A model generated the notes under the pieces. It searched no databases, was not told where the DNA came from, and was given only the letters and a program-made list of their open reading frames with translations. Shown piece after piece: positions 9,601 through 31,900 of a stretch of DNA of 64,000 bases. The stretch spans positions 1,046,690 to 1,110,689 of the forward strand of contig NC_089192.1 in the NCBI RefSeq assembly GCF_947507565.1. Reading direction: 5' to 3'. This DNA comes from Oscarella lobularis. Taxonomy: Eukaryota. Numbering within the stretch: position 1 is the stretch's first letter; every line of letters begins with the position of its first letter. Made by a program: the position numbers and the translations under genes.

Positions 9601-12600
9601 CTTAGTCTAGGGAGAGAATAGAGATATAAGAAGAAGGTCGCGACAGGCCACTTGCTTTTCGAGTCCAATGTCAGTGTAACTATCCAGCGATATGGCCTGC
9701 TTATTCTGATGCACAACAGCGCCAACGGCGATCTTTTCCACCGCTTCGAAAGCGACCGGACCCGATCCCGATCCTTTGACGGCGTTGATGACGACGTGAA
9801 TGCGTCGAGACTGACCCTGAGAAGAGAAAAATACAAATACAGTAGTCTTATGTATATAGAATCTTTTGGCTAACCTGCTTGAGAAGAAATATTCCGCCCG
9901 TTCGGTTGTCCGGTCGTTCGACCAGCTGCACCGGCGCATATTCTCCCGTCTCGTTCAGCTCCATCACTTCGACGATCATTTCAAATCGCTTCAGCACTTC
10001 GCTCCACCTACGCAGAATAATAGAAATAATACGACGTCTCTTTTTTTTCTCGTTCTGCTATATGCCTTTCGGATAGCGATCGATTTTTCAGCGCTCGAGG
10101 CTGAACCAGCGCCTCAGAGAAGCCTATACTACGATTGCCGTAGACTTCGAAGCGAATGCAGTCGTAGGCGATGTAGTCGACGAAATCGTCCGTTGCCACG
10201 ACAGGAAAAATCTAAAGAAACCATTGCTGTTGTTTCGCACACAATCCCCCCGTCTCGTCTACGTGATCGTTTTCGAATATGACTTTTTGCCGGCGCACAA
10301 TCGCGACGCCGTTCGAGTCTCTCAACGGCGACACGATGACCTGCTTGTGATTGAAGAAGTCGTACTGGCAGAAGACGTACTTGCACCATTCCTGAGGCAG
10401 GCCGGACGCTTCAACAACGGAAACCTTGGCAAGGAACACGCGATTTCAATTAAAAAAAAAACGCCATGTCGAATACCTGAATAGTCCAATAACTGTCGTC
10501 GCCGTTCATTCGCGGAGTGTTGCCAAGGAGAACGAAGTCGGTCATATCGTCAGTCAGATCAACTGTAGAGGAAATAAATTTTAATTATTATTATTACATA
10601 CGCGTATCTAGTTTCCTTACAAGACTGATGTCGTTTAATCTTCACGTCAAGTCGACCGCAAATCTACGTTCAGACGACGTGCTACAATTCCCTAACGGGG
10701 GGCCCCCCACACACACGTGCTTACCTCTCCCTTCTGGTCGATAATCGGAGGCGAATACTCGAGCTCGACTTCGTGGTGAAGACATTCGAGAAATAGATTA
10801 GCGACGCCGATGAGCACGTGCGAGTCTTGATCGTAAAACGGATCGTTCATCTCGAGTTCGTCCTTCAAGGCGCCGTCCTGAAGTCGCTGATACATGTCGC
10901 GCATGTCGACCAATTTATCCTCAAGCTTATCGACGGACCAAGCTAAAAGAAAAAAATTCCTCTTATTAGCAGTTATTTTTTAATTAAAAAATTTTTTTAC
11001 TCGTGTTTCGACTTTTATTCTTGGCGTAGTTCAACGCGATTACGACTTCGTTTGGACGCTTTCGCTTGGGGGCGCCCTTTCGACGCGGCGACAAAAATTC
11101 GCGACGAATCTAGAGAGCGCGATCATAACAAATCCACGCACGCGCGCGCGCGGGCGGGCGGGCGCGCCGCCGGAGTCAACCTGAAGCGACACTTTGAATT
11201 TGACGTCTTTATCCATTTCACTACTAAGACAATTCGCCTCCCTATTATAGAGAACAAAACCCTCTCAGAGACATAGTCAAACTTTCCGCAATGTTTCCTC
11301 TTCCTACCTAACCATCTCCATAGCGGATAACATGTTCTCCTTCAATCGTCTCAAGTCCTCTTCGTTGTAGAGCTCCTCTTCTTCGTCACTAGACGCGCCA
11401 ATACTCAATCTCGCAAACGTACTGTATTGGTATTGTATTACCTCAATAGATCGAGTCGACTTCCTCGCGCCGAGCCGGGCGTCGCCGGCGTCGCCGGCGG
11501 CGACGTCGAATCCCGCTTCACCGTACTCTGCATCTGACCTCTCAATTCTTCGAGCTTCTTCTCGTACATCATTCTCTGTTCGTCGAGAGCGCCTGCGAAG
11601 ACGACGATCGTTTCCTTGCCAACGAGGAGGAGGAGTCTCTTGCCTTGTTTGTCGGCTATGTGTTTCTCTTCGAGCGACTTGACAACGTCGTCGACGTTCG
11701 TTCGCAGCATCTCATTCATGGAGACTTCTTTCTTGGCGGACTCGTAGTCCATGGGAACGTTCTCCTCGCCGCCAGTCGATTCTTAATCCCATATATCTAT
11801 ATATCCCCCTCCTCTCGTTCGCTCTCCCCTACCTCGCTTTCGATCGCAGCTGACTCGAAAGAAATGATTGTTTCCCCAGAGTATGCGATCGCCCTGATAG
11901 AGAAGCGTTCTCTCCGTGACGAGACATCCGTTGATGAACGTCTGAGCGTTCTTCTCCGGCGTGACGTAGAGATCGCGATCTTCTGTCTCGAGAACGCAGT
12001 GCTGCGGATGAATTCCTAAACCTTGAAGTCGAATGTCCTAGAAGGAGACAGAGACATCAAAAAAAGCATATACATATATAGTCCCTTATTTACTTACAGG
12101 AGGAGGTACGCCGTCCTTTCGGCCGACTCTCATATAAGGCTAATAATAATAATAATAATAATTAACATTGATTCCCCACGTGTTTTTTATGACTCACTCT
12201 GAGATAGTAGACAAGAAGTTCGTTTAACGACGGATCGGCGTTCAGATTGACGAGATAGAACTTTCCCGATTCGACGCCGATTCCGGATGCTTGAATCGAG
12301 ATGCCCATCTCTTCCAGAGCCTCTTGCCTTTTCTAAATAAATAAGATGAGAAACCAATGAGGTTTCGGTCTTCACGGTCTTGTCCTCCTTTACATGGTGA
12401 ATTCGCTCCGTTTCGGCCAATTTCTCTTCCCAAGTCATCGTTATGCTGTTCATTAGCCTCTCACTAATAGCCAGCTTCTCCTTCAGATTGTCCACCTGCG
12501 AAAACAGTTTCAGACGCGAGTACGTCGTTTTGCAGTTCCCTCATTAGCTTTTAGCTAATCGACCTCTTTCTGATCCACTTCGCTGCCTACTCCACCTGGC

Positions 12601-14493
12601 ATCTGGCCACCCGACAGCATACTCCGCAACCGATCCAACTCTTCTCTCAATTCCCTTATAACCTAAAAAAATAACCGTACATGAAAATCAAGCGCGTGGG
12701 GTCCCTTTGGATTCCTCTCCACCTTTGCATTTGGATCCTCATTGACGATGGCGTTGTTGACGATGCGCTTTGCTCTGTCGGCGTACCGTAGCGTCGACAG
12801 CGTCTCCTCGTAGTTATCCTCGGCCGGACTGACCGTGGCTACCATCACCGTCTTGCTATTGCCTCCGAGATTATCCTATAGTAAAAAATGATTAAAATAA
12901 TAAAACGATGTCACGGGGGGAGAGTCACCTTTAAAAGCCAGGTCAGTACAGAGTCTCTGTAGGGAATAAACGTTCCCTTCTTTGACTTTCCAGCTGACTA
13001 AAGATATCAAATTTCAAGCGAAGCAGACATTTAAATGCTCGTCGTTTTACCTGATCGGCGAGATTCGAGATGACAAGACCGAGCGTCGTCAACGACTTGT
13101 TGATATTGCTTCCCTCTCGAAGGCGATCGCCTTCGGCGCCCGATTTTCCGGCACGCTCGCTGCCCGCCAAATCGACGAGACTAATTCGCGAGACTTTTTC
13201 GTGCCCAGCCTAAGGGGGCCCCCCAATTGGGCGTTTTTTTCACATGATTTTGGAGGGGGGTTACTTGAGTTTCTGGATCGAACATCGTCTGCGTCATGAC
13301 GACGGTAAACACCGCATGAGAACGCGAACTCTCCGAATTCATATTCGTCGAGGCAACGGTGCGAGACTTATTTCCCTCAATCATGAGAGATTCAATGTCC
13401 TGAGACAAAACGCTATTATGTATGCACAAGCTAAACGTTAGGGATATATGTACTGCAAAGGATTTGACGGCGAGTTTTGAGAGTCCGTCGACGTAGGGAC
13501 CGAGACTCTGATGCTCTCGCACTTTCAACGATTGCTTTTGCCTATCGGGAGAAAAAATACGTTTTCTACTTTCGAATTCTAAATTTATTGATACCTTCGC
13601 GGATCGAGTAGGTCTCTCACTTTCTCATTATAGATTTCCATGTAGGAAACCTCGACCTTGAACGTCAGTCTCGTATCGTCGTTCTAGAATGCTCCAACAT
13701 CAGACCCCATGTCCATCAATAGTACGTATATATACGCTAACACTCGAAATCCTTTCGAAAAGAGAATCGCACAGTCGAGGTATGATCCCCTTCTGACCCG
13801 GTGCGCCCATCATGGTATACGACTTCCCGGAACCTAGCACACCGGAAACGAAAACACAAAGAGGTCATTCATTTATTTATCCTATAATCTATTTGTTTTT
13901 TTGAGAACCCGTCTGGCCGTAGGCAAACACGCAGGCGTTGTAGCCTTGGAAGGCGTTCTCCAGAACGTCGCGACCGAGCGCCTCGAACACCGCCTCTTGG
14001 TTCCTGTGCTTGGGATTCTTGTCGTCCATCGACCAGAAACAATGATCATAGGCAAAGTTCTATTGATAAAGGGTTACACTCTAAAGAATGTCTCTTAGAA
14101 ATGAAGAAACCTTTGTGCCCTTCCTACAAAAAAAACACGACGCACGTGTATTTAATTATTATTATTAATTTATTTTTTTTTCTGACGTACTTATTGCTCT
14201 TCAATGTCGTCTGCTGCGGAGTCATGTCAATGACGCAATTGCAGCCGATTTCGATTTCTGAGCGAATGGAACGCCCGTTAATTAGAAATCGTACCCGGAA
14301 GAACGAAAGAGAAGAGAGAGACAAGGGTCCTCCTTTGGGACCACCTCCTTCACCCCCGGCGAGGTGACGATACACCAGCCCCCCTTCTCCTTTCTCCCCT
14401 TCCCCCCCGTCCCCATTGCTCGTCTTTTCGCGTTCGTTTTCTACCTCTTTGGTTCATCGGGCGAACTCGCACGGCGACGATCACTTTCGACAT
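6625..14493 (-). CDS. Kinesin-3 family motor protein with C-terminal CAP-Gly domain (KIF13/Khc-73-like; motor, FHA, KIF1-type stalk, acidic S/E-rich region, CAP-Gly); about 20 or more exons
   Basis: Exon 1 (14493-14446) gives [16 protein letters not shown]. The motor exons give [81 protein letters not shown] and [39 protein letters not shown]. The neck gives [12 protein letters not shown], and the coiled coil gives [30 protein letters not shown]. The FHA domain lies on the minus strand at about 12020-11830. Further exons give [78 protein letters not shown] (KIF1 DPFYDRF..LVGRAFVYLSNL motif), [26 protein letters not shown] and [13 protein letters not shown]. The long S/E/T-rich exon is the 6889..8208 ORF. 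The terminal exons give [41 protein letters not shown], then an intron, then [28 protein letters not shown], which matches the CAP-Gly GKNDG motif. It is an inference that all these exons belong to one gene. Confidence 0.75.
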
Positions 14494-14765
14494 TGTCGCG
14501 AGCGTTTAGGATTCGAGATACGCGATGAAGTCCGTCTTTCGAAGGCGAGGCCGTTCGGCCCTCGAGGCGAGCGCTTCGCGGTTTCGTTGAATGGAGGAGG
14601 AGAAGCAGCCACGCCACGCTGGCCGAAGAGTAGAAGGCGCGTGCGTTAGGCCGTTATAACTCGAATTATCGTAGGCGTTACTGTTGCGCGCCTTTTTTTC
14701 TGGAGTCGAAGCAGCAAGTGATTCGACGTCAGAAAATTAGCACGCACAAAGTTAGTACACTGCCT
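14494..14765. promoter_or_regulatory. Putative bidirectional promoter between the divergent kinesin-3 (ATG 14493, minus) and TRMT11 (ATG 14766, plus) genes
   Basis: The two start codons are 272 bp apart on opposite strands. The region is GC-rich (gaggcgagcgcttcgcggtttcg..gccacgccacgctggccg). No TATA box was seen. Confidence 0.45.
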
Positions 14766-16873
14766 ATGCTGCAGTTTCTAACGGCGGGCATCTCACGCTC
14801 TCGTCACGTGCTCATTCTATTAGCGCACGGTACTAGATCTGAAACAGACAAATTCAATGTTGCGCTGTTTATTCCACTACGCCCAAGAGCACCTGGAATT
14901 CAGACTACCAGTATGCCGTAGCTACTGCAGCAGGAGCACGCCTCTGCAGCGCCTTCGTTGCAGGAATTCGTATCGTCGGCCGCTTTGGCCGGAATTGCCA
15001 ACGCAGAGATCGTAAAGGAATGCTCCCATGCAGCCTGCGACGTAATCGAATCAATTAAATTGAAGTGCTCGGCGCCCTAGGGACGTCTGCATTTATTACA
15101 TGTAGCTCAGTCCTTTTCTGATTGTCGACTTGCCATCAGAGGACGTTGCTCGTCGCATCGCGCAGAGATCGGTTTTAATGAAGCAAGCACAGAATATCAA
15201 ATTCCGATTTTTAATTATTAATTAATTAAAATTCTTGAAGATCTGTCATTGACTTGTGGGGCTTTGGAAGTGACCTGTCAAGTCTGAAGTCCTCTATACT
15301 TGCGCACTTACTAGACGAAAAAGAGGTATATAAATATAAGGAACATGCACACAGCATAGTCTGATGTTATCCGTGTTCAGAAGCAATTTATGTTGGAGAG
15401 CGTAACGTTTCGTATTCGCATTGAGGCCTTCAATAAAAAGTGCACGGACGAATACAGTGCCAGTTTGATAAAGGTACGAGGGGACGTTGATAGAATCCAA
15501 ACCATTATTATTGTTCATATTATAGCAACTCAACTTTTTGCCTTTCAAAGGAAGAGTAAATTTGCGGCGACCCGACCACACGTTCTGTCTGTTCTTAGAC
15601 TACGGCACCGATTCCACGACGCCCGCGCAACCGTACCGATTATTTTTCGGAAGAGAGGTCGGGACGTCGAATTGGTTTCGCCCTCGAAAAACAAAACTAT
15701 CTCGCTTCGTAGATTAGTATGAGCAGTCGTCATCTTCTCGACAGTTATTCGATTAAGAAACGACGCTACATAGGAAATACGTCGATGGATACCACGCTGT
15801 CCTTCTTGATGGCAAATCAAGCCAAAGTTAGTCGCTCTCTAGTCGAAATATTTATAAGTACGTAGGTTGTTTGTACAAGGTCAAGCCAGGTCAACTTGTA
15901 CTCGATCCGTTCGTAGGAACAGGTCAGTACACTAGGTCACATACCGTCTTTCTATAGACCCTATTATTTAGGAAGTGTTCTGATTGCGTGCGCCTGCTAT
16001 GGAGCTCACGTCGTTGGAGCGGACATAGATAGGAAGATCCTTCATGGCTGGGGTACAAAGATAATGAATATTGATTACTATATATATAAAGCCTAATTTT
16101 TATACTCTGTTGTAAGGAAAAACGTCGCGAGCTGCAGGGCCAAAGACAAGAGGTATTGTAGTCCCAGTACTTACACCAGAACGTGGCTCAACTTATGTGC
16201 ACTCTACGCAGGCCCCAACGACAATCTCTACATGTCCATGAAGCAATACGGTTTAGAAGCGCGCTACGTCGACGTATTAACAGCCGACGCCGCTCGTCCG
16301 GCGTGGACTCAGCGCTCGCCGCTCTTCGACGCTATAGTAACGGATCGTAAGACTATGATTGATCTCTATTTAATTAACTAAGCGAATGAGTGTCTTTAGC
16401 ACCGTACGGCGTTCGAGAAGGTTCAAAAAAGATTGGCTCAAAAAAGAGCCAAATCAATACCGTAGCAGACGAATAGTACGACCTCTAATTTCATGTATCT
16501 CTACTTGTTTATGTATTGTCTCTCTTTATTATAGTAAAGCCGATCACATTCCTGCCGTCACTCCCTATCGTCTAAGCGAGGTCCTAAGCGACCTACTCGA
16601 ATTAGCCAACAATACTCTAACCGTGGGCGGTCGCCTAGTCTATTGGCTTCCCGTGTCGAGAGCAGAGTAAATAATTATTTTATATATATTTTTTGATGGA
16701 CACGTTTTTTTAGCTATGAGCCGTCCCTCATTCCCGTTCACCCCGGTTTGAAACTGATCGCAAATAGCGAGCAAGTGATCAGCGGCCACGCGTCGAGACG
16801 TCTTCTCACGATGGAGAAAACGACTGAGAGCAAAGTGCCCATCCCACATAGACCACGTATTTCAATTCCCTAA
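14766..16873 (+). CDS. TRMT11: tRNA (guanine(10)-N2)-methyltransferase Trm11/TRMT11 homolog; about 10 exons
   Basis: The first two exons give MLQFLTAGISRSRHVLILLAH, an intron, then EHLEFRLP, matching TRMT11 LLLMAQEHLEFRLPE. Later exons give FRIRIEAFNKKCTDEYSASLIK and SSRHLLDSYSIKKRRYIGNTSMDTTLSFLMANQAK. SAM-binding motif I reads CLYKVKPGQLVLDPFVGTG. Further exons give EVF.LRAPAMELTSLERT.., RTLTVGGRLVYWLPVSRAE and the C-terminus YEPSLIPVHPGLKLIANSEQVISGHASRRLLTMEKTTESKVPIPHRPRISIP*. The exons are separated by 45-65 nt GT-AG introns. Confidence 0.8.
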
Positions 16874-17004
16874 TAACTGTCTGGTTTAGAACGATGCTAC
16901 GGTATCGGGAGCGGAAATTCACGACGCCTTCAGAGCGGCGTATTTTAAACGAAAAAATTAATCAAGGGGGAAGAAGAACGATTGAATTTCTTTTTAATTA
17001 TATA

Positions 17005-18506
17005 TGTATGTATGCGTGACATCATTTTTTTTCTGGAACGTTATACGGACTGACCTGTGTTCATCTTGAATTCAAACTCGGACACTTCGACTCGTTGCGG
17101 CTGCGGCTTCCGTGTCTCCTTCTCTGTTCCGCTGAGAACGCTCTGCATGACCTTTTCGGCGATGCCACGAAGTTCAGAGTCTTTTTCCTATGTGCACAGC
17201 ACTCGATGAGAATTCATACTCTGATTCATTGACGTCTCGAAAACCGTGTAGGCTTTGAGCAATTTTTCCTGCGCCCACGTGGCCATTGACTTGCTATCCT
17301 TTTTCGATTTCAAAGCAGATGACGCCTGACCAGAGCAAAAGATTATAAATATAAAAATATTACGAGTTGTCTTGGACACCATAAAAAAGCCGCAAAGCGA
17401 TCTAGTGCTGTCGGGATTCAGTTTCAGAGCTTGGGCGAAGTACTTGCGAGCCAATTCCATATTATCAGTACCACCCATAGAGTATAGTATCTATAAATGT
17501 CCAATGGAAAAATATGACAATAGCTCTTCATTCTAGAAACCTCTGCGTATCTTTGATGAAACAATGGCATGTGAGGATTGACGAGAATAAGTTCTTCCAT
17601 GCAAAATGCAGCGTGTTTGAAACTATGGCCAGCATAATTATTCAAAAAAATAAATAATTCACTCTTACTCCAATTGAGATATGTACAGATCGGCTAACTC
17701 GAGCCAAGCCTCGTGATCACTCATAAAGCTACATAGAAGCTCATGCGTGCATTTGCCCTATATATATAGTATCTCTTTCTCTTACTCCTTCAAATATTCT
17801 GTTAGAGCCTCGATGGCTTCAGCTACGTCTTGCTTCGCTTTGAGTACGGCCACTTTTCTCTTACGAGCCAACTGAAAAACCATTTACAGCTCTTTTCAAT
17901 TAAAACTCGTGCGAATTCTCTCACCCCATACGTCGAATCTTCTTTCAATATTTCGTCGTAGACTTCCAAAGCTTCGTCGTAGCTTAGAATATTATGACGT
18001 CATCATCATCATTCGATTCGAAAAATTTCTTCAAAAATTATCTCACTTTTCAATGGATTCTAGATACATTCCACGTAGTCGTCTGACTCTCAGGCTCTTG
18101 GGAAATTGGCGTTTGAGCTCGTCGGAATAAAACTTTCGTTAGGAAGAAGAATGACCCATAGGAATTCTTTCGTAGTGTCCAAAGTTCTCTTGCCTGTGCC
18201 AACTTCTGTTTTCCGCAGTCCAAGGCGGCGAGGAACAATTGCTCGAAAACTATCCACACTGTGAAGGAAATCGTTCGTGGGGACGTTCTCTGACGTTTTG
18301 CTTCTATGCTCACGCTCGTCTCCTAGTCGCGATCGGTTCTTTTCGACGAGAGGCTTGCCTATTTTGAGTACGGTCAAACTGTCGCGGTTCTTCGCCTCGC
18401 GAAACTCTTTTAGGCGCTCTCTCGCCTCCCTCCAGTCCAGTTGAACGTCTTCGGACGAACGGGAGATGTCCTCCACGCGTCCTCCACTAGCTTCAGAGTG
18501 AGACAT
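17005..18506 (-). CDS. EMC2: ER membrane protein complex subunit 2 (TPR protein, EMC2/TTC35); multi-exon
   Basis: The start gives MSHSEASGGRVEDISRSSEDVQLDWREARERLKEFREAKNRDSLTVLKIGKPLVEKNRSRLGDE, similar to EMC2 ..TWEEMRDKMRKWREEN..EYASKLGDD. Later exons give WIVFEQLFLAALDCGKQKLAQ, FCMEELILVNPHMPLFHQRYAEV and [37 protein letters not shown]...SALKSKKDSKSMATWAQEKLLKAYTVFE, the last a near-exact match to EMC2 [27 protein letters not shown]. The last exon ends ..KMNTEKK* at about 17008. Confidence 0.85.
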
Positions 18507-18919
18507 TCGGCAAATTTTGGTTTTGAGTCGAAATCCCGGATAAGGATGTCTACTAGTAGACCCACGTATATATAGAACCAAACTAACAATTCAACGACGA
18601 AAAAAGTGGCTGTCCTAACTCATGTTCAGTCTACCGAATAGGCACAGGATGCTGATCCTTCAAAAGTGACGTCACTAAATGAAAACAAATTTAGAAATAA
18701 GCATGTACACACGAACAGAGTCTTGACGTGCGTCAGCCTCACAAGAAACTCTGCGAGTCGGAGAGCCTCAGGCTGACCTGCAGGTGCCTCTAAGCAGCAA
18801 GAGACCACGTGAGGCAATCTCTGACGTAAATAATTGAAAAAAGACTACAGTTGTAAATAAGAACGAGGTTGTACAAAAATAGAAAAATAGAAAATGTAGC
18901 AGTACTACAGTTACTATTA

Positions 18920-19961
18920 TCATTGGCAAATGATGACGTCATGGCGTCCATTTACAAACCGCCCTTGTACCTTGCGTTGAAGGTTGCTATGTTTTAGCTG
19001 TAAAAACTCCTGAAAGCAGACATCTGCGCTAGAACGATTGTCCTCTTGATCGTCAATCAATCTTTTACAGATGGAAAACTGGTTGAACTTTCCGCGATTG
19101 TTCAGCTCCATAAGTTGATTCTGTCTCAAGCTGGCATCAGGAGGTCGGCAAAGGAAAAGTTCAATCAAGGTGACTCCCAAACTGTAGATATCGCTAGCTA
19201 ACGAACTTGGTTGTAGAAGAGAAACACGTTCCGGAGCCAAATAAGCTTTACTGAGGGGTCCACCGGAGACAGATCCAAGCCGATGAGCTGCTCCAAGATC
19301 GCCCAACTTAGCTTTCATGAAATTAGTCAGTAAAATATTCGTAGGGCGAATGTCGCCATGAATGTAAGGAATTGGCTGGCGAGTATGCAAGTAAGTGACT
19401 GCTGTGACAATGTCTCGTGCGATACTGATCTCCTCGTTGTCCTTGAGAGGCTCTCTGTGTTTTAGCAATTCGGCAAGCGAACCCTCCAGAAGTTCCGTGA
19501 CTATATGAATTTCGGTGATTGTTTGATCTTCCATAACGTTCACAAAGCCGTATGTAGTGACGATGCTAGGATGACACAGACGATGCAGTGTTAAAACTTC
19601 CTGTTCAATTCTTGCAACATCGTAGCTACTATAATTGATTACTTTGACGGCTACAGGTTGGTCAAGAAACAATCCGGTGTAAACGGCTAATACGTAATTA
19701 AATGAAAATCAGTAGTGAACACTACAAAAGCGTACCTCCAAAAGAGCCCGACCCCAACTTTTCCTGTTTGTTGACACGCACTGATCGCTGTTCAAGACGA
19801 AGAGGCTGTATAAACTTTTCAAGCTGCTTTTTCAATTCTTGACAAGACAATGAAGCGCTTTGAAGGCTTTGTGCACTCCAACTTAACTCCACTGCTGAAA
19901 GACGATAGATAATTGTCGACAAAGCACAGAACTTATAAATCATCTTACTGTTGCGTTGCAT
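18920..19961 (-). CDS. Protein kinase; 2 exons (19961-19722 and 19672-18920), N-terminal coiled-coil segment
   Basis: Exon 1 gives MQRNSKMIYKF...QELKKQLEKFIQPLRLEQRSVRVNKQEKLGSGSFGGTLL, containing the Gly loop GSGSFG, then a gtacgc..attag intron. Exon 2 gives AVYTGLFLDQPVAVKVI (VAIK lysine), ..TELLEGSLAELL.., YLHTRQPIPYIHGDIRPTNILL (catalytic loop with HGD in place of HRD), KLGDLGAAH (DLG in place of DFG) and YLAPE. There is no clear family assignment; it is TKL- or Ser/Thr-like. Confidence 0.75.
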
Positions 19962-19979
19962 TAGCTCTTTTAACTCTGT

Positions 19980-20230
19980 TGAGTGTTTCTAAGAATTATG
20001 TACAGATACTAGCAGAACATAGTACAGAAAGGAATCTCCGCACCTTTTGAATTTCTGTTAGCACTGTCTCATATTGTTGCCTAAGTGCTACCGCTTCTGC
20101 ATGCCGTTCCTAGAATTATGCACGAATAACGCAGACATAGCACAAAAAGTGATCTCTGCACCTTTTGAATTCGTTCTGTTTCCCTTGCTAGCACTGTCTC
20201 GTGTTGTTGCCTAAGTGTTGCTACTTCTGC
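19980..20230. repeat. Tandem duplication of a ~125-bp unit
   Basis: The stretch cttttgaatttctgttagcactgtctcatattgttgcctaagtgctaccgcttctgcatgccgttcctagaattatgcacgaataacgcagacatagcacaaaaagtgatctctgcac repeats with few changes at about 20040-20160 and 20160-20285. It lies between the kinase 5' end and the kelch gene 3' end. Confidence 0.7.
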
Positions 20231-21660
20231 AGCAATAAACTTTGCCACTCAGCATCAAACGATTCCTTTGTCTGTCACCTTTCTCGCAGTCACGTTTAAG
20301 CTCAGCAGTGCGCTCTATTGCGACGTCAGGGAACAGACTGGCAGTCAAGGCAGAAACGTCTACAAAAAACAGTAGAGAGTTGTTTATTAGCTAATGAAGA
20401 TAACATTATGGGAATGGAAAGCCACTAGGCAAGACACTAAAACGTGCTTCTTTAAAATCAATTTGAGTTAAAATGGTTCCAAACGGCGCAATGTACAAGT
20501 GCACTTACTTTGTTTTAGATGGTGATAAATGAATGTTCTATCTGGCACCACTCCCGCAACAACGACAACATCAAGCTGATTCCCCCTATTGTAGAGGCAT
20601 GCAACCGAGTGACCAGCAATTGAGCAAATAACTTTTCCTCCTTCATCCTAGTTAGAGCTCAGCATGACCACAATTTTACGTGTATAAATGTAACCCTTTA
20701 ATTACCTCAAAATGAGCAACACTCCATCGAGAATCATCAAAATTGTAGTAATAAGCACACTTGTCAAAGTTCCCATAGAACTGCCCACCGAGTAATAGAA
20801 AGAATGGCCGATTCTCAATGTAAAACCTTGATAAAGTGTGCTGAGCTTTAGGAGGTGGTCGCAAACCAGAAGAGAGAGAAACCAGCCGGAACTCCTAAAA
20901 AACAAATACAGTAGTCGAAACTACCTCTAATCTTTTCAATAGGGTACCCTTTTTACAATGTCAACAACAAAAAGATCATCGAAGTCATCACAGAAACCAT
21001 GACCACCATACAGGAGAGCTCGGTGATGATCGATTGGAGCCATTGCAGAGGCACAGCGCGGCTTGGGACGGAACCCAGCAGTCACAACATTTTCCCACTT
21101 GCCACCTATTTCAATTAATTATTTACCATTAGCATCATAGGAGTATAATTATACTTAACATTGAATAGATACAGCTCGTTGTTAAATCCTAATTGGTAGT
21201 CGGGTTCCTGAAGCCATTGGGCTCCAAACTGCAGCGCAGTGCCCGGATCTGGACCGTACCCACCGAAAAGCAGCAGAGTTTCCGAGTTTAGAGCCACCAA
21301 ACAGCAGCTTGATCGACCACAAGGTCTTTCAGAAGTTGGGTCTATCTCCTGTTTTCTCCAAATTAGATTAGTCGTGTTCAGACGATACATGTCCATCGAA
21401 CGACTCCCGTCTTCTCGTTTTCCGCCGTACGTGAACACCGTATCCTTAATTACTTCACATCGTGCGTAGCAGCACAGCGGGGGAACGTCTCCGGACGCCT
21501 GCCGCTGCTCCCAAGCGCCAGATGCGAGGCTGCAGATGCAGATTAGGTCCCTCGGGAAGAATTCCGATCCGTCCAGAGATGCTCCGCCCCACAGATACGC
21601 TTTGTCGCCCAGCACAGCAACCTCGGCATCGCGTCTCGGTTGCGGCTGCCATCGCGCCAT
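20216..21660 (-). CDS. Kelch-repeat (beta-propeller) protein; multi-exon, 3' end approximate
   Basis: The ATG at 21660 opens MARWQPQPRRDAEVAVLGDKAYLWGGASLDGSEFF...DTVFTYGGKREDG..MYRLNTTNLIWRKQ..PCGRSSCCLVALNSETLLLFGGYGPD. Downstream exons give ..RPPPKAQHTLSRFYIENRPFFLLLGGQFYGNFDKCAYYYNFDDSRWSVAHFE. The repeated hh.GG and W motifs and the GG doublets are typical of kelch blades. The terminal exons at 20216-20360 (..DVSALTASLFPDVAIERTAELKRDCEK..) are tentative. Confidence 0.55.
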
Positions 21661-21754
21661 ACTTACTCTTAGCGGAGTGGCTACGCCGACTGTCAATGTT
21701 TTCTAGAACGTTCTATCGGACGCATGCGTGTTTGGAGAATTCGGCCTGATTCAA

Positions 21755-23290
21755 CCATAGTAGTCAGGTGACCTGACCCTTCACGTGACCGGGGAGAAGG
21801 GTCAGGTCAAACGCCCTATGTCTAACTGTTGCCGCCGCACTGTACAGTGCGGCCCAATCACAGGCCGAGACCTCTGTGACGTCGTTATCAAATTAATTAC
21901 GTAGTACTCGCTGGCACGTGATCTCTGAGCCTCGGAAGAAGGGACCTTTATCGAACGCGGCGATAGAAAAAGCAATCGACTTCTCAGCTGCGAAGCTTCT
22001 CATCGAAAACGTCTATCCCGACGATCGACGATTACCTTCCAAATATCAAGCTCGCTGCGCGTCGACGAAGGTTCAAAAGTCGACGATCTCCACGTACGTG
22101 CATTCGCCGCAGCCTAGATACAACTCCAAAGCCATGTATCGTGTGCTGGTCGACCGTGTGGTCAATTACGTCACAATCAAGCTAAGTGGATAATTGGGGC
22201 TTCCGCATTCCTACGGCAACACTTCGACATAGGGCGTTTGACCTGACCCTTCTCCCCGGGTCACGTGAAGGGTCAGGTCACCTGACTACAACCATAGATG
22301 GAGGAGGGGGAGGGATTGGAAACTCCCCGATATCACGTGACTTTTTGTATAGGTTGCTTTGGCTCTAGGATCGTAGCTTCGGTTCCCGGATATTCCGCGA
22401 AATACGTAGTCCTTTTCTCCTCTTCGTTCAGCATCGACTAGAATTTCAGGTTGGGATGCGTTTTTTGTGATGTGCTTGAACAGTTTGCGTGAAATTATAC
22501 GCTGAAAATGTCTTCGATCGCGCCGAAATGACGCTTTTTCAACCGATCGAGCTTCGGCAGGGTAAACTCTGTCGATTCCGCGTCTACGACAAATTTTTGG
22601 TGATGAAACGCTGCCCTAGTGTTCTGTGCGTGCCATAGACGTAGTAATTTGCGCGTGGATTCGCTTAACTGTGATTTCGGCTCGATTTTGTTCCCGCCTA
22701 CTGTCGTCACTAGTGCAGGGTAAACTTTCTCTACGAAGACAATTCGTACCAACACTTCGTGCACAGCCATACTTGAGAGACATGTCTGTGCCACTAGGAT
22801 ATCATTTCCTCAGCTAAGTGCTTTGTTGATTTTTAACAATTTTTTTTAGATTATATGAACTGTGAGATTTGAAACGGCTCAAGTACGAAAGCCAGAAAGC
22901 AAAGAGAGAAAAACCCCAAAAGAAGACTTTAGAAACCTTTTGGTTTCTAAATTCTACTTATGACGTCATAAATTATAATTTGTTCTATTTTTTAGTCAAT
23001 TTGCATGGTACAAAAGAGTCGCTAGGCTAGCGTTTCAGAAATCTTCACCTAATGCACTGAGCCACCGTGGCTCAGAGTACTAGGTGAAGATTTCTTGACG
23101 GAATTCGACTAATCCTTGGAAATCGACTACAATTGTACGTTCGCTGCTATCACGTCGAAATGTTACAATCGATCGAAGCGATAGTCTCGTCGCGAACGCT
23201 TCGCAGGAAAGGCAGGACGCTTGCGACGATCGTAGAGCCACGGAAAGTCACGTGATATCGGGGAGTTTCCAATCCCTCCCCTCCTCCATC
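21755..23290. mobile_element. TIR element B (about 1.0 kb excluding nested MITE-A), ~55-bp TIRs atagatggaggag...ccgatatcacgtgac, 9-bp TSD gattcaacc; MITE-A is inserted 4 bp inside its left terminus
   Basis: The left terminus (after excising MITE-A and one TSD) reads atagatggaggagggggagggattggaaactccccgatatcacgtgac (22295-22342). The right terminus (23243-23290) is gtcacgtgatatcggggagtttccaatccctcccctcctccatctat. The sequence gattcaacc occurs immediately outside both ends (21746-21754 and 23291-23299). The interior holds an 80-bp hairpin (23040-23100) and a 99-aa minus ORF without recognisable homology, so the element is non-autonomous. Confidence 0.75.
21757..22290. mobile_element. Non-autonomous TIR element (MITE-A), 534 bp, perfect 64-bp terminal inverted repeats, perfect 9-bp TSD caaccatag
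   Basis: The left TIR is tagtcaggtgacctgacccttcacgtgaccggggagaagggtcaggtcaaacgccctatgtc (21757-21820). The right end (22229-22290) is its exact reverse complement. The 9-bp direct duplication caaccatag lies at 21748-21756 and 22291-22299. The TIR contains an internal palindrome and two CACGTG boxes. The internal ORF 21918..22193 has no recognisable homology. Confidence 0.85.
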
Positions 23291-23321
23291 TATGATTCAA
23301 CCGTTCACCTAATTAAGCTTG

Positions 23322-23700
23322 CTATCTTTCTTCGATTTCAAAGCAGATGACGCCTTACCAGAAAAAAAGATGATAAATATAAAAATATTACGAGTTGTCT
23401 TGCACACCATACTTGCGAGCCAATTCCATATTATCAGTACCACCCATAGAGTACAGTATCTATAAATGTCCAATGGAAAAAAAGATGACAATAGCTATTC
23501 GTTCTAGAAACCTCTGCGTATCTTTGACGAAACAATGGCATGTGCGGATTGACGAGAATCATGCAAAATGCAGCACGCTTGAAACTATGGCCACCAAATG
23601 CGCATATTACTCGAAAAACAAATAATTCACTCTTACTCTAATTGAGATATGTACAGATCGGCTAACTCAAGCCAAGCTTCATGATCACTCATAAAGCAAA
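23322..23700 (-). pseudogene. Duplicated fragment of the EMC2 gene (copy of about 17283-17732 with a ~60-bp internal deletion); non-functional
   Basis: The stretch cttgctatctttcttcgatttcaaagcagatgacgcc..ataaatataaaaatattacgagttgtcttgcacacc..cttgcgagccaattccatattatcagtaccacccatagagtacagtatctataaatgtccaatgg.. matches EMC2 exon and intron sequence around 17283-17732 at about 90% identity. It begins about 25 bp after the right TSD of element B. Confidence 0.8.
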
Positions 23701-24499
23701 ATCTACGATCTTTACCCGTGGAGGAAGGAACGGATCCACATGCTGATATTAACTAACTACAAAAATACCTAAAATTGAAACTATTTGTAGTTCAGGAATG
23801 CTAAAATCTTGACCTCGCGGATTTCTAACGAAACGCGCTAGATCTAATGCTAGATGCTAATATAACAACCTCGCGCGGTCAAACGGTTCGTGCAAGTCAA
23901 AATTTCCAAAGAAAATGCGCTAATTGATTCGGGGGGCCCCCAAAGCGTAGATCTATACCTGTTCCACTATTCGCACGGTTTCTTCAAATTTGAGCGTAAA
24001 TTATCAATTGCGAAGCGCTTCGTAGTCATAGATCACTGTAAAAAAAACGAAGCGAAAGTGATCGCGCGGCGACGTCCGGGTGGACGGATAGCCTTTTTCA
24101 TCGCGAAAAACAGGCACCCGATCGCCCATACGCTCACCGACGCCGTAATTTGCGTCGTTATTGGCTCCCGCGTCGTCGTCGTCGCCGAAATCGGCCGTTT
24201 TCTTCGTCTATGATCTACGCCACGTTCGATCTGCTTCGCATGTTCGTTTCCCCGATGTCCGGGCCGTTCGACAAGCCCGCGAAAAAGCCAATCGACGATA
24301 ATTTACAGCGAACGTAAGGCGAAACTGTGAAGGAAAGGAAACGCGACCACGAGGCATCGTACGCCATCTTGACCTTGAGGCGAGAAATCTTGCATCACTA
24401 TTGCCAAGAATAGAATTGCTGACCATGATCGTGATGCAATCGATGGTCAAACGGTATTAAAAAATTCGCACCTATTCGAAGGAACCAACCAGAGCGCTA

Positions 24500-25240
24500 G
24501 ATGAATCCAACGTGACCTCGACGGACCAATGAGCGCGCTGGGCGGAGCTAGCTACACGGTTCAAAAGGGAAGTGCACACCGATTCTCTTTCAGTTGCGGC
24601 CTAGGGTGGGTGCGGCGTGGAGCAATCTGCGTCTCATCCTTGACGGACTGGCTCGGGAGTATCGGCAAAAGGACAGTCTGGATCGTCGGATCAGCGTGGC
24701 CCACGGATTAATCCCGTGCCGGAGCCTCTAAGCAGGGCGATGGGGGGCTTCGGCCTCGGTTCACGCACTGAGCGAAAAGATCGCCTATATGTCTTATTGT
24801 TGCCAAACGAGCACGACCTGCGTTAGGCAGAGTGGGTACGGCTCGGAGGGGGTGTCGCAAGCGGTCTGGTTGCCGGCACTTATCTCACCAACTGGCACGA
24901 TTAGATTGCGGATGATCTGGCTCAGGAGAATTCGATCTGGGCATTGCACGTCCTTTCCTGTCGACTCCTACAAACAGTAGTCAGCCGCTCTCCACCTCAG
25001 AAGCCCTGGTTCTTAGCTTCGGCTTACCAATGTGGTCAGGTATCGTCGCGCCGGGGGACTCGGTATTAGGGGCCGACTACTCGTCCAGGCGGATACTGGT
25101 TGAGGTGGCCTATGAGGTCAAAACTCGCCCGAAACTTTTTGGAACGGGTGGCCATTGCTTTGCGGTGGCTGCCTTGAGCTACGTAGCGTCCGAACCTCCC
25201 CGTGGTGTAGCTCGGGTAATGCTAATACGGACGCATTCAG
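24500..25240 (+). ncRNA. GC-rich conserved non-coding element, copy 1 (candidate structured ncRNA; an inverted paralogous copy lies at 63514 to the window end)
   Basis: About 740 bp of around 60% GC with no ORF longer than 80 aa. It aligns to the reverse complement of 63514-64000 with frame-shifting indels, so it is not protein coding. The 3' 105 nt, ..ggaacgggtggccattgctttgcggtggctgccttgagctacgtagcgtccgaacctccccgtggtgtagctcgggtaatgctaatacggacgca, is about 91% identical between copies. It contains aggtcaaaactcgccc, preceded by ccaggcggatactgg and gccgggggac, which is reminiscent of the SRP RNA S-domain motifs CCAGGUCGGAAACGG and AGGUCAAAACUCC. The 5' boundary is approximate. Confidence 0.4.
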
Positions 25241-25911
25241 AAAAGGTGCGTAGAACGATATTTTGACAGTGACTAATTGGGATTTGATTTTTAGATCGCG
25301 AGCGCTGAAGGACGAAAATCGAAGAGAGAACGATCGACGAAGACGAAGACAGCCGGAGAAAAACGATCGACGAAAGGAAGGATCGAAAAATACAGTGGAC
25401 ACGTTAGACTAGGTTTCTGCATGAGTGCATGTATCCACTGTAAAATTACTGTACGAAATAAAATCATGTGCGCAACTTGATCGTCTACGTGGCCGTCGCG
25501 TATCTCGTCCAGCCTGCGATTTGGAAATAATAACAACGAGCCACGTACTAGTTATTTCCATCGAAACAACGGTACTCAGGTCTCAGGTAGGTTTTATCGG
25601 TGTACGCAGATACAGTGCACGACGACGTTTTAACTAAAAAGAGGAGAAGAATGACTTCAATTTCACTAGAGCCCATTTCGTATTGATACACGTATGAAAA
25701 CAATTCCAGTACCATTTCAGACAAAAGTACTGTGCATTCAGGTCAAAAGGGATTGTGCAGGAAAAGAACATTGCCAAGAGAATCACCAACCAAAATTCTG
25801 TCGGCTTCATCGACGACAGAAACAGCCATGGACGTGACAGGACCCGGTGCACAAAAGAGGCCAATCTTGAGAAGACGCAATTATGAACAGAATTGTGTAG
25901 ACTGATTTTCT

Positions 25912-28900
25912 CTAAACCTGTTGCAACGCCAGGCTACTCCACACTTTGACTGTAGCATCAGTTGACCCGGTGTAGTACGAATATTTGCCTACTCCACCAC
26001 CAGAAATAGCTTTTGAATGCAACTGAAAGGAAAGACCGTTAAACAGTCGAGCGCCAAACTTCGTGCAATATCTATGAAACCTTTTCCGCGACCATTTGTT
26101 TGCCGGTGACGCGATCGAATACAGATACCGTTCCACTCGAACTTCCCACCAAAATAATTTCCTTATTCGCTTCCAAATCGCTGAGCATTTTTGGACCGGT
26201 TTTCGTTCCGTGCGCGAGAAGTGTCCACTGCTTTCCTTCCTCTTCTTTCAAGTTCAATGCACTTCTGGAAGACGTCTAAACACGACAACACAGGTATATA
26301 GTAAAAACTTGCAGTCGGGAAAACACGAAGATCCTCCACGTAATCTACCATCTCACCTTTGAGCTGTTCCATACAAAGACTTTAGAATCCGCCAACGTCG
26401 CCATGAAATAACTTTCATCTTCGCTGAAGGATAGGTTGGTTATCCAATCAGTCGGGCTGCCACAACACAATCTATAGGGCATGTAACTTGTTGCAAGCTA
26501 CGCACTCACCCCTTGAGAACTGTGACTTTTTGTAGAGCATCGCCGGTAAATTTCCATACAATCGCGCTCTTGTCCCACGAGCCCGACAACAGAGTGCAAC
26601 TCTTGCGACTGTACGCGAGGCATGTAACTGGTAAACCGGTGTCTCCATGGGACAAACTATAGAAGAAACAAGGCTCCCTTGAACATAGTGAGGGGATAGG
26701 AATGCTTTTTGAAAAGAGCTACGAGATTTGGCGTCTTACTAAATTTTGAGGTAAAATTGCCTTTACAGTGTTTTTCGCAAATTTCAAGACCAACCAGTGT
26801 CTGCAACTTTTATGCACGAGAGACGTTTCGTCCGCCTGAACCGCAAGCGCCGTTTGCGCGCCATCAAGTTGCAGACACTGGTTGGTCAAAAATAGGCGTT
26901 CCCACCAACGCTATTATTTGTATGCAAGACTGCATGTGACGTTCCGACCGCCTGCATGAGCCGCAAGCGCCGCTTCAAGTTGCGCGGAACAAGTCATGGC
27001 AGCGTCCGACTGCTAATAGAATTTTTTCAACCTGCCACAAGACACGTTCCGTCCGCCTGAACCGCAATTGCGACGCTTGCGGTTCAGGCGCACGGAACGC
27101 CACTCGCGCATAAAAAGTAATGTGTAGCGTTGGCGGGAACGCCCACAATTGAGGGGTAAGTGTCTCTCACTCGTTTGCGCGCGAGCGGCGTTTGCGGTTC
27201 AGGCGCAAGGAACGCCACTCGCGCATAAAAAGTACAGTGTAGCGATGGCGGGAACGCCCACTTTTGAGGGGTAAGTGTCTCTCACTCGTTGCGCGCGAGC
27301 GGCGCTTGCGGTTCAGGCGCAAGGAACGCCACTCGCGCATAAAAAGTACAGTGTAGCGATGGCGGGAACGCCCACTTTTGAGGGGTAAGTGTCTCTCACT
27401 CGTTGCGCGCGAGCGGCGCTTGCGGTTCAGGCGCAAGGAACGCAACTCGCGCATAAAAAGTACAGTGTAGCGATGGCGGGAACGCCCACTTTTGAGGGGT
27501 AAGTGTCTCTAACTCGTTGCGCGCGAGCGGCGCTTGCGGTTCAGGCGCAAGGAACGCCACTCGCGCATAAAAAGTAAAGTGTAGCGATGGCGGGAACGCC
27601 CACTTTTGAGGGGTAAGTGTCTCTAACTCGTTGCGCGCGAGCGACGCTTGCAGTTCAGGCGCAAGGAACGCCACTCGTGCATAATAATGGCGTGGTCAAT
27701 GGCAGCGTCCGACTGCTAAGGGAAGATAGAATTTTTTCAACCTGCCATTACCACGCTATTATTATGCACTAGACATCCAAGCGCCGCTTGCGCGCAACGA
27801 GTTATCTGCAGAAACTGGTTGGTCAAAAATGGGCGTTCCCAACATTTACCAGGCTATACTCAGGCTATACTCAGGCCGGTAAAGTGGTAGCGACAACACA
27901 TTTCAGCCCCATTCAAAGCTATTGTACCTCAATTTCAAGTTATGCCTTTTTGAGTATATCCATAGTTGAATTGCACTGCCTTTTCCCACCACAAACGTAG
28001 CCCGTTCAACTGAAGATTCAAGAAATTTGACGGCATTGACTGGCTCGCTTGACTCCATCACCTGTGCAGGTACAGGTGTTATGCAACAGAGGTGTTCGTA
28101 CGGAAATGATATCAAACCTTGGAATGGAGTCTAGGCGAGAAGGAAGAATGATCGCCTTGAAGGGACCACAAAAGAACACTTCCGTCTCTGGAGAAGATAA
28201 AACTGTACAATTACGCACACAAAGTCATTACACAGTACCTGCTGGACGTAAGAGCCCAATACCCAGACGGACACATGTCGCCACAGGTTACGGAGGCGCT
28301 GTGTCCACGTACAACCGGTCCGACCTTAAAACAAACGCGTTCAAAGACCCTCTATATAAAAAAATTAGTAGCGTAATCAATTTACTGCATGCCTATAGAA
28401 GTAATCACAATTCCGATATATAAGTTACCTACCTGAGGCAGCCAAACCTTCACCGTCTTGTCCAGAGCACTCGTCACAATTCGATCTCCAACTGCTTTCA
28501 CGCTAAGAACGCGACCTGAATGCCCACTCAGCGCTGCTAATTCATTCGCCTGCAGAGCAAAAAATGCTTAGAAGTGATCCGGATCATATACTCAACTTTC
28601 TACCTGTAGAGCCATCCAGGAGCGAATTGATCCATCGTCGCCTCCAGAAATGACAGCTACGTCGCCGAAGCGAGCCTTTTCTCCTTCTTCGTCGAAATCC
28701 GTTTCCGTCCGATCGTCAGCCATGTCAGCCCAAGGAGTCGACGTCGATTCTTCTTTCTTCGTTGCGCCCGAGTCCTTTGCAAAGATACAGCACGCGTTGA
28801 CTCGTCGTTCGTGGCCGTGCAACGTCGTGATTTCGATGCCCTTGCGACTCCAGAGTTTCACCGACCCATCGACACTCGACGAAACAATACAACCAGCCTA

Positions 28901-31900
28901 AAAAGACACGATATCTCCTAAGCAAAAAGATCTCGCGTTTGTTTTCAAACCGTTATGGCTACGTTCGTCACAGAGCCGAGGTGACCTTTCATCTGAACGT
29001 TGGATTGGAAAGTTTCCAGGTTCCACAGTTTGACTGTGAAGTCGTTGGACGCCGTCACAATGAAGTCGTCTTTCTCGGATAGTGCCAGGGAATTGATCCA
29101 ATCTTTGTGCGCGTCAGAGAGCGATTTGATCTGAGAGCCCGTTCGGGTGTCCCAAATGATGATCGTCTAAAGGCAAGTACTTCTCGGTCCAGAGCAACTA
29201 AGTTCGTTTATATATATATATAGTACCTTATCTCGGCTAGCTGATATTACTCGCTTCTCATCTGAAGTCAAGCATACTCCGGTAACGGGAGCGGAATGGC
29301 CAGCCAATGAACGAACTGGACTCAAAAAACTGCCAAAAGAAATTAATTAGATAATAATAAATACGTCATATAAATGAATCCCGCCCAGCTGGGTACACTC
29401 ACGTTCCGGAAGACGGTTGCTTCTTGGCAGGCTTCTTTTTCACGTCGTACAGACAAACGGTGAAATCCTCGGAGCCCGAACTTATGAGCTTGTTACGCCA
29501 ATCCACGCACCACACTCCCTTCTCGTGGCCAACGAGAGTCTTCTCAGCCTTCTTAGACGACGATGAAATGATCTAGAAGAGACTCTCTCGTGACAATGCA
29601 TATGAAAAAATGCTAGAGTCAAAACCTTGAGCGTTCCATCGTCCGAACCAGATACGAACCGCTCTCCAAATCCGCTTTTTTCCCATGCCAGACAGCAAAC
29701 TGCAGCAGTGTGAGCTCCTGGGTACATCGTAGTAAGAGGAAAGCCTGCTCTTTATTAAGCATACCATCAATTTCGTCTAGTTCAACACCGGATAATGCAT
29801 CATAAATTCGAATTAGCTTCTCGTGATATCCGGCTGCCAGTAGACGCGACGAAGGATCGACCGCCAAGCACAAAACGCCGCCCACGTCTTCAACAGCATG
29901 GGCAGTGTACGTTGGCTTGCCAAGATAGCCAGACCAAACCTAGAATACAACAGAAGTTTTATTAGACGTCACACGCACTACACTGAGAAATTAGTGTACC
30001 TTGATAAGCTGATCGTCACTTCCCGTTACGAGATGACCGGACTTGGTGAAACAAATCGCATTGACAGGTAACGCGTGACCGGTCACGCAGCCAACCTAAA
30101 GACACATCCAAGTCCACTATATATAAGCACGAGTCTCTCACCTGAATTCCGGCCATGGAATGCCAGATCTTTATCTGCCCGTCGAGAGAAGCCGAAGCGA
30201 TGTGCACTCCGCTAGGAGAATACGCCACTGCTCGCACCGAACAAGAGTGCCCTCGAAGAGTCTTAATTAAAAAAATACAATATTCAATTTTTTTATTTAA
30301 ATCTCAAACTTAGTGAACCTTGATTCGTTTCCGGTTGAACGTGTCGTATATTCTCATTCTCGAATCCCAGCTTCCCGTGACGATGAACTGGCCTTCGGGA
30401 TGGAAGTCGACGCAGTTGATCGGTTTCTCGCCGCTTTTCAGCTCGGCAACGACGCTTCCGTCTTTGCCGCTCCATATAACGATGCGCGCGTCCCATCCAA
30501 CGGAAACGATGACGCTGCCCGACGGATCCGACGCGCACGCGCCAACTTGGCGCTTGTGACCCATAGCAGTCGAAATTCTATAAAGAAGCAAAAAAAACGT
30601 TTGACAACCGTCTCTACTCTTTGGAGTTAAAAATTATTGAGACTGCCTCTTTTTTAAGTGCGACTTACCTGTGACCCCCTTGAACATCCCAAAGGGAAAA
30701 GGCACCGTCCAGGGATGCGCTGCACAGTCGAGACGCACCCGCAAAGCAACAGCTAACAACTGCGTGAGCGTGTCCGACAAATGATTTCACTTCCTAATAT
30801 ATTTCGAACAATTGAATAGGACAATGCTCTAATAGGAGCTAGTGCTTACTTTTCCTGTAGCTAGCTCGTAAAGTTTCACTGTGCAATCCTGAGAGCCGCA
30901 CGCAATGAAACGACCGTCGGACGAAATTGCCACGCACAGTACAAGCTAGTGATAAACAGACGATTGAATTTATCAAAATGTCTCCTTATATCTCTTACCT
31001 TTGAATTTCCGCTGATAGTCATTTGGCATGGATGACTCTTATCTGGCTTATTCACCCAGAGAAGAAGCGACGAGTCTTCGCCGCGCTGTCGCTGACTCAC
31101 TATTTCATGCGCTGCTTTAGACACAACTGACGTCGCAGGCTCGTTGATTGCCTGCTGCATCACCAGAGTTGAGTAGCTAAGAAATAACAGATGAATTTCA
31201 AAAACGCCAAACAAATAATTGAATTAATTAATCAAAAAATTGCAATTCTCACCTTGACATGATGTGAATCTGCTGAGAGACGAACGAACGATATTCCTGC
31301 AAAGTAGAACTTTGGAGAAATTTCTGCCTTTCTTTTTCCATCAGCGGAGGAAAATCGTGCTTTCCTAAACGACACGTTCTGCTCGCGATCTCGTTCGCCG
31401 TGCGACTACTGTACCCCTACCGCCGGCTTGGAGGTCTTCCACGACCTGGAGTCCCAATCCAAGTTGACATTTGACTTGAATGTATCGCAAGTTGCAGACG
31501 ACTTTTCCCAAGTCTTCCCACGCGCCAGCGCAAGTCTACAGCAGTCGAGACGTCTATTAGAAGGGGATTTCGCGATAAACGCAAGCAGGAGACCAACTAA
31601 ATTTAGGTGGGGGCCCCAAAAGTAAGAAAAGAGGCGCCCATTACCAAATGATAAGCTAGTTCACTACAGGCACGCTTGTTGAGACCGGAAAACGTCCCAT
31701 CACGAGCGGGATCCGCCTCGTTGTAGAAATAAGCTAAAGGAAAGGAAATTACGATTGCACAATGACATTTGAAGAAAATTTATATAAGTATATGGTACCA
31801 GCAATTAGACGATGGAGTTTCGTTTCTTCGTCTTTTGGTGACGATTTCAGATACTGTTTTTTGATAGCGTTGATGACGTCAGAATGACACAAAAGCATCA

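Follow-up and report, generated by a model that had tools for sequence, protein, structure and literature searches.

The region examined here is a stretch of 64,000 nucleotides (the window) from contig NC_089192.1 of the homoscleromorph sponge Oscarella lobularis (assembly GCF_947507565.1, forward-strand positions 1,046,690 to 1,110,689). Two elements with terminal inverted repeats (TIRs), designated A and B, are nested within it on the 5' side of a Kelch-kinase gene. This gene occupies positions 18923-21660 on the minus strand and encodes a protein of 721 aa (RefSeq XP_065844184.1), whose terminal exons were placed by tblastn at 100% identity. The start codon is at 21658-21660, and the insertion point of B lies 96 bp upstream of it. 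Beyond the right end of B is a degenerate partial copy of the EMC2 gene, discussed below.

Element A (21761-22288, plus strand), delimited by a repeat search and a script, is a non-coding TIR element of 528 bp, not 534 bp as the first-pass annotation of this DNA had reported. Its TIRs were described there as perfect over 64 bp. In fact, the outer 62/63 nt of the left arm (21761-21834, plus strand) and the right arm (22214-22288, minus strand) are identical save for one 1-nt indel (GACC-GGGG versus GACCCGGGG), and the likeness extends to 74/75 nt at 96%. The terminus is near-palindromic (GTCAGGT-G-ACCTGAC). An 8-nt motif, CACGTGAC, occupies 21782-21789 in the left arm and 22260-22267, on the minus strand, in the right. 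A is flanked by two copies of the 9-bp direct repeat CAACCATAG (21752-21760 and 22289-22297). Its target, CAACC/ATAG, straddles the left junction of B: 5 bp derive from the flank of B and 4 bp, ATAG, from its left end, and A is positioned 4 bp inside that end. The final 4 bp of the right-hand copy restore the ATAG terminus of B. In its size (below ~800 bp), its TIRs, its duplication and its lack of coding capacity, A may be a miniature inverted-repeat transposable element (MITE), a class that is also defined by homogeneous families of many copies; a single locus of A was seen, and two copies of B, which at 1000 bp is longer.

The arms of A also have internal structure of their own. Each contains a hairpin with a 14-bp stem (TGACCTGACCCTTC / GAAGGGTCAGGTCA) around CACGTGAC, at 21769-21809 on the left (stem strands 21769-21782 and 21796-21809) and 22239-22280 on the right, and GTCAGGTCA recurs three times per arm. 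The hairpins and the GTCAGGTCA repeats are candidate transposase-binding repeats.

Element B (22294-23293, plus strand) is a TIR element of 1000 bp. The ATAG was duplicated by the insertion of A, and B therefore keeps an intact left end. On its original footing, B consists of 21757-21760 together with 22298-23293, and measures exactly 1000 bp once A and one copy of the duplication are removed. The TIRs (22294-22344 and 23244-23293; 51 and 50 nt) differ by one 1-nt indel in a run of G; CACGTGAC occupies 22334-22341 in the left arm and 23247-23254 (minus strand) in the right. Flanking copies of the 9-bp sequence GATTCAACC are found at 21748-21756 and 23294-23302. As had been claimed at the outset, 9-bp duplications thus flank both elements, GATTCAACC and CAACCATAG each being present twice.

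The longest open reading frames (ORFs) of A and B span 91-99 aa and gave no Pfam hit above threshold. Neither the 91-aa ORF of A nor the 99-aa ORF of B corresponded to any record by exact look-up, and six-frame translation of A yielded no protein homologues. The called ORF of B (91 aa) was found on allelic contigs only, and has no database relatives beyond the same ORF in the two copies of B. A and B encode no protein; both must therefore be non-autonomous and mobilised in trans.

The anatomy of the elements was also assessed statistically and cannot be put down to chance. Each perfect match between two 9-mers has a probability of 4^-9. When the whole window was scanned for inverted repeats (at least 16 bp) with direct repeats (at least 7 bp) on either side, only A came up, and the terminal motifs of A and B are absent elsewhere in the window (about 0.04 or fewer expected from shuffles).

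Four contigs of one assembly cover the locus. On ptg000207l (2-9% diverged) the site of B is precisely empty (...GCCTGATTCAACC/GTTCACC...): a single GATTCAACC is followed by GTTCACC, and the EMC2 fragment is retained. Contigs atg001152l, which corresponds to the window here, and ptg000061l both carry B with A inside it; they lie 0.3-0.5% apart, and their copies of A are identical at 528/528 positions, in keeping with the recent insertion of A proposed earlier. Only 1 SNP in 9.4 kb and a tandem duplication of 38 bp separate atg001655l from ptg000061l; on atg001655l, B is present with CAACCATAG-TAGTCAGGTGACCTGACTA-CAACCATAG at the site of A. TAGTCAGGTGACCTGACTA is a 19-bp palindromic remnant of A, composed of its first 10 and last 9 nt joined inside the 7-bp direct repeat ACCTGAC, with both copies of the duplication kept. 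Because other haplotypes show an empty site and a 19-bp leftover, we conclude that the insertions are real and recent. The comparison of empty alleles suggested in the first-pass annotation thus gave a precise empty site for B and, at the site of A, the remnant.

A second copy of B, B2 (L011:9476-10477 on ptg000224l), was reached by a homology search with the B ORF, which yielded one further cluster member. B2 is 98.1% identical to the copy in the window (B1), has perfect TIRs of 51 bp and lies 96 bp upstream of a called KLHL20-like ORF; measured to the RefSeq start, the distance is about 84 bp. Its empty site on ptg000244l reads CGTGGAAGAATTCATG, with a single GGAAGAATT; the filled site reads ggaagaatC/B2/Ggaagaatt. 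B, with copies at two loci (ptg000061l and ptg000224l), is a real mobile family because the second copy has an empty site at an unlinked locus. The intact end of B2 also allowed the target of A to be reconstructed. Thus, TIRs with a duplication that is single in the empty allele, the hallmark of class II TIR elements, were observed directly for B1 and B2, and for A by way of the reconstructed target and the A-deleted haplotype. The existence of a nested pair of non-autonomous TIR transposons, as first proposed, is borne out by the empty site for B, the second B copy and the A-deleted haplotype; that B entered before A is upheld by the precise B empty site together with a haplotype in which A is deleted inside B.

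A third element, C, is located 5 kb from B2 (L011:15317-19644, ptg000224l). It is an intact-looking Mutator-like element (MULE) of the MULE-OTU type, 4328 bp in length with TIRs of 53 bp. One ORF of 707 aa (707/708 aa across two copies) contains the MULE domain PF10551 and the ZSWIM1-3 RNaseH-like domain PF21056, and a second encodes an OTU protease of 309 aa. RefSeq XP_065842614.1 represents the two ORFs fused, with a PHD-like finger, and named relatives of the transposase include proteins of O. lobularis and Amphimedon queenslandica. A second copy, C2 (L012:5610-9940, ptg000025l), is 99.6% identical to the first (C1). The duplication around C1 is perfect (9/9 as CAGCTAGAG, or 7 bp), and C2 has no recognisable duplication. 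The genome therefore contains apparently intact MULEs. The nearest relatives of C are Hydra MULEs of the MuDR-6_HM type, which carry a MULE DDE transposase and an OTU cysteine protease between their TIRs; a MULE bearing OTU has been recorded from Hydra (PMC6446971).

An empty site for C2 was sought in L014, where only a 1.16-kb THAP-containing repeat common with L012 was found, and in L015 and L016, where a 1.15-kb repeat ends exactly at the C2 boundary and the sequences then diverge. The surroundings of C2 are rich in transposons: Ty3/gypsy-like long terminal repeat retroelement ORFs are present at 3174-8276 and 12129-15943 of L014 (ptg000257l), and the 1.16-kb THAP-domain repeat is common to the unlinked contigs of L014 and L012 (L012:2412-3569).

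Element C is not part of the window. With A and B it has only CACGTGAC in common, and it is not demonstrably their partner. The inner TIR of each of the three elements carries this motif, always in one orientation, and only 2 copies occur outside TIRs in the window. In shuffled TIRs, an 8-mer common to all three was obtained in 0 of 20000 trials (7-mer frequency, 0.001). We propose that CACGTGAC is a transposase-binding site. C was also considered as the autonomous partner of A and B, and was rejected for lack of TIR similarity beyond the 8-mer.

We regard Mutator/MULE as the probable superfamily of A and B. It is the best assignment because of their 9-bp duplications, TIRs of 50-75 bp, near-palindromic terminal motif, insertion next to start codons and the CACGTGAC shared with the MULE-OTU element. 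MULE duplications are 8-11 bp in length, most commonly 9 (PMC6446971, PMC5499845), and the values found here were 9/9 for A, B1 and C1 and 8/9 for B2, although all four also fit 7 bp with an extra terminal base pair. The TIRs of MULEs are long, commonly >100 bp with a published range of 14-500 bp (PMC5499845, PMC6446971); those of A (62-75 bp) and B (50-51 bp) fall within this range, below the classical >100 bp. MULEs also tend to insert in or near genes (PMC5499845, PMC6446971), and here the distances to the start codon are 96 bp for B1 and A and about 84-96 bp for B2 (n = 2-3). The terminal motif of the Aedes MULE Muta1 is palindromic (PMC5499845), like the near-palindromic terminus of A. 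The 8-bp duplication of hAT elements was not observed, the repeats being 9 bp or alternatively 7 bp; an 8-bp reading would need asymmetric termini.

A and B therefore resemble known non-autonomous MULEs, such as maize Mu1 and derivatives of Muta1, in their 9-bp duplications, TIRs of tens of bp, lack of a transposase gene, position near the 5' ends of genes and derivation of remnants by internal deletion at microhomology. They differ from the classical examples in having TIRs of less than 100 bp, in lacking a matching autonomous element and in that the outer bases of their duplications seem partly element-specific. Taken together, A and B are probably MULE-type, representing new non-autonomous families of a known kind.

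The best explanation of the locus, to which we assign a probability of roughly 62%, is that two non-autonomous cut-and-paste (class II, TIR) transposons, unrelated in sequence and most likely of the Mutator/MULE superfamily, are nested here and that the EMC2 fragment is independent of them. In this scheme, the 1-kb B entered the 5' flank of the gene at GATTCAACC, 96 bp from the start codon, after which the 528-bp A entered CAACC/ATAG across the left junction of B. One very close haplotype then lost A, of which only the outermost 10 + 9 nt are left, joined at the 7-bp microhomology ACCTGAC, with both duplication copies kept. By parsimony, the order is B in, A in, and A lost in one lineage. The loss is most likely to have been initiated by transposase excision and completed by microhomology-mediated or abortive gap repair. 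Deletions across microhomology of 6-8 bp after excision have been documented (PMC3814204), among them the MITEs Gnome, Elf and Goblin, which arose from Ozma by abortive gap repair or microhomology-mediated end joining and likewise kept both termini; unlike these, the remnant of A, at only 19 bp, is too short for a functional MITE and is not a new family.

Several points weigh against this explanation. The defining feature of the superfamily, TIRs in common with an element that encodes a MURA-type DDE (PF10551) transposase, was not observed: no autonomous element with A- or B-type TIRs was found, and C, the sole autonomous MULE recovered, has different TIRs and no BLAST similarity to A or B, the 8-mer CACGTGAC excepted. 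Merlin elements also give duplications of 8-9 bp. A was seen at one locus only: no second copy, and no further termini or remnants of A, B or C, were found in the ~324 kb of sequence examined, and JGI metagenome contigs scanned with the A and B TIRs gave no match (the O. lobularis assembly, deposited in ENA, is outside the scanned set). At B2, the base adjacent to the element is C, where the target and the other copy of the duplication have T. All four insertions are also compatible with a duplication of 7 bp and termini extended by one base, and 7 bp is outside the published MULE range. Finally, a TIR-retaining remnant is not a typical product of MULE excision because excision of Muta1 in yeast is mostly precise (PMC5499845), and a transposase-independent hairpin or slippage deletion explains the remnant equally well.

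The last of these alternatives survives best. It may be that no transposase was involved and that the remnant arose when replication slippage, or a deletion promoted by a hairpin, joined the two ACCTGAC direct repeats at the foot of the TIR stem, and we consider this a serious possibility, if one falling short of an even chance. The near-palindromic terminus creates a 7-bp direct repeat within which the breakpoints fall, both duplication copies are kept, and the 62-75-bp TIRs of A could form a long hairpin; replication-based mechanisms are also recognised to yield the same junctions (PMC3814204, discussion). Against this, microhomology deletions that retain both termini are a classical product of interrupted gap repair following excision (PMC3814204). 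Since the genome contains intact transposase genes, the excision reading is slightly favoured, although sequence alone cannot separate it from slippage.

A second alternative concerns the length of the duplication. It is possible, though rather unlikely, that the true duplication is 7 bp and that every element extends by a further base pair on both sides (A = GTAGTC...GACTAC, B = CATAG...CTATG, C = GACGAGG...CCTCGTC). At A, B1 and C1, the 9-bp duplication begins and ends with complementary bases, such that the TIR can be extended by one base pair, and this complementarity runs through the junction bases in all three families. The junction pairs and cores would then be G...C with AACCATA for A, C...G with ATTCAAC or GAAGAAT for B, and G...C with AGCTAGA for C. 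At B2, the C of the filled site (set against the single GGAAGAATT of the empty one) cannot derive from the target and equals the base flanking B1. C1 and C2 have the same junction bases (G...C) in unrelated flanks, and a paralogue of the left flank of C2 has C, not G, at this position. The 19-bp remnant also has the sequence expected if two 17-nt 3' overhangs from the near-palindromic terminus had annealed, and staggered cleavage of the P type would leave such overhangs. The elements would then form an unusual MULE clade with short duplications, or A and B would belong to a P-like group (7-8-bp duplications).

The 7-bp reading would, however, require 7/8 of the target bases next to the core to match the element termini by chance (p about 4e-4), a match that is automatic with 9 bp. 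Moreover, C encodes a bona fide MULE transposase, and MULE duplications span 8-11 bp (PMC6446971, PMC5499845). The base at B2 can be explained by one substitution or by carry-over of a nucleotide from the donor flank. We therefore think it fairly probable that the true duplication is 9 bp. Carry-over of one donor-flank nucleotide per 5' end has been described for the hAT element Hermes; speculatively, the same process would reconcile 9 bp with the element-specific junction bases (C...G at B1 and B2, G...C at C1 and C2). The position at which MULE transposase nicks is not stated in PMC5499845.

A bolder version of the preferred explanation can also be framed. O. lobularis would host a currently active MULE system whose excisions have been caught as contig-level variants in one sample, possibly through somatic mosaicism, and the element-adjacent base of the duplication would come from the donor site by an hAT-like carry-over of a 1-nt 5' flap, which would account for junction bases that stay constant within a family even at B2, where the target differs. 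We consider this combination improbable.

The possibility that A, B or both belong to another superfamily with 8-9-bp duplications, such as Merlin, was also weighed. The transposase would then lie outside the sample and CACGTGAC would be a host E-box-like motif or a coincidence. Merlin elements occur in animals and have duplications of 8-9 bp, a length compatible with A and B, and P elements combine duplications of 7-8 bp with TIR-retaining footprints. The lack of an autonomous partner, and of similarity among A, B and C beyond the 8-mer, would be compatible with such an origin. Conversely, the genome contains intact, near-identical MULE copies whose clade has relatives in A. queenslandica and O. 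lobularis, the 8-mer has one orientation and one class of position in A, B and C, and the insertions are 5'-proximal to genes. The TIRs of A and B have no link to a Merlin or P transposase, and no Merlin-type transposase turned up, no search having been aimed at one. An origin of this kind thus appears very unlikely, and Mutator/MULE is retained as the probable superfamily.

The EMC2 fragment (23318-23697, minus strand) is a degenerate exon-intron pseudo-copy of ~380 bp derived from 17290-17729, where the source ORF matches PF22890. Positions 17290-17383 correspond to 23318-23411 at 92.6% identity and 17441-17729 to 23410-23697 at 87.6%, and deletions of 59 bp and 9 bp relative to the source are present in the pseudo-copy. 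It begins 15 bp past the right duplication of B, outside the TIRs. The first-pass annotation had considered both capture or transduction of this fragment, as in a Pack-MULE, and insertion of B next to an earlier segmental duplication. Capture or transduction by B, to which proximity alone (15 bp) would point, can be set aside with hardly any reservation because the fragment is outside both TIRs and at the same place in ptg000207l, with its precise B empty site; in addition, B2 lacks the fragment, and fragment and source (88-93%) are more diverged than B1 and B2 (98%). The EMC2 fragment, present without B, is an older, independent local duplication that predates the insertion, as the second of the two suggestions had it. 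The resemblance to Pack-MULEs is that a MULE-like non-autonomous element adjoins a host gene fragment; in Pack-MULEs, however, the fragment lies between the TIRs, whereas neither A nor B has a protein homologue in its interior and the EMC2 neighbour of B lies outside and is older than the insertion. Capture of EMC2 by B was accordingly dropped as a candidate, being already refuted by the empty-site haplotype.

These observations document recently mobile DNA transposons in a homoscleromorph sponge, with two new non-autonomous families and an apparently intact MULE-OTU element in the same genome. A 2019 survey of MULEs contains 0 occurrences of the words 'sponge', 'Porifera' and 'Amphimedon' (PMC6446971). 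The allelic series at the locus is complete (empty, filled, nested and remnant) and provides clean evidence of recent activity. An insertion polymorphism 96 bp upstream of the Kelch-kinase gene could affect its expression, and the elements can be used in the annotation of transposons in sponge genomes and as a marker. The biology is that of ordinary transposons, and the known picture of how transposons work is unchanged.

Some features of the assembly and of the wider window were also recorded. ORFs of the window were matched exactly to ENA assembly ERZ18545485, and they fall into clusters, at 90% identity or more, with RefSeq proteins of O. lobularis. The window is a mosaic of two contigs of this assembly, equal to atg001152l at 100% over 11884-31660 and to ptg000061l at 100% over 32534-53982; its origin is therefore probably another version of that assembly. 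At least four distinct sequences span the transposon locus in one sample; either the tissue was pooled or chimeric, or the region has a paralogue, or the variation is somatic. The 38-bp tandem duplication on atg001655l (L008:10781-10856), which distinguishes this contig from ptg000061l, is located just inside the first intron/exon region of the Kelch-kinase gene. An Rfam scan of the window gave no matches.

A tandem satellite with a repeat unit of ~114 bp occurs at two sites in the window (1397-2393 and 27070-27687). At the second site its copy number varies between haplotype contigs, the window and ptg000061l being one unit apart. Cathepsin B-like genes are duplicated in tandem at 42217-44023 and 47200-48976 (also 44370-45125), with 82% DNA identity, and correspond to RefSeq XP_065843706.1 and XP_065843512.1. 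The ends of the window are joined by three diverged (67-75%) pairs of inverted matches, 75-989/56465-57386, 2525-2941/55475-55901 and 24791-25243/63512-63993, possibly representing ancient segmental duplications in inverted orientation or repeats common to both ends. Lastly, 60326-60740 and 61010-61985 have a low GC content (38%), a strongly positive GC skew and internal tandem or dispersed repeats.

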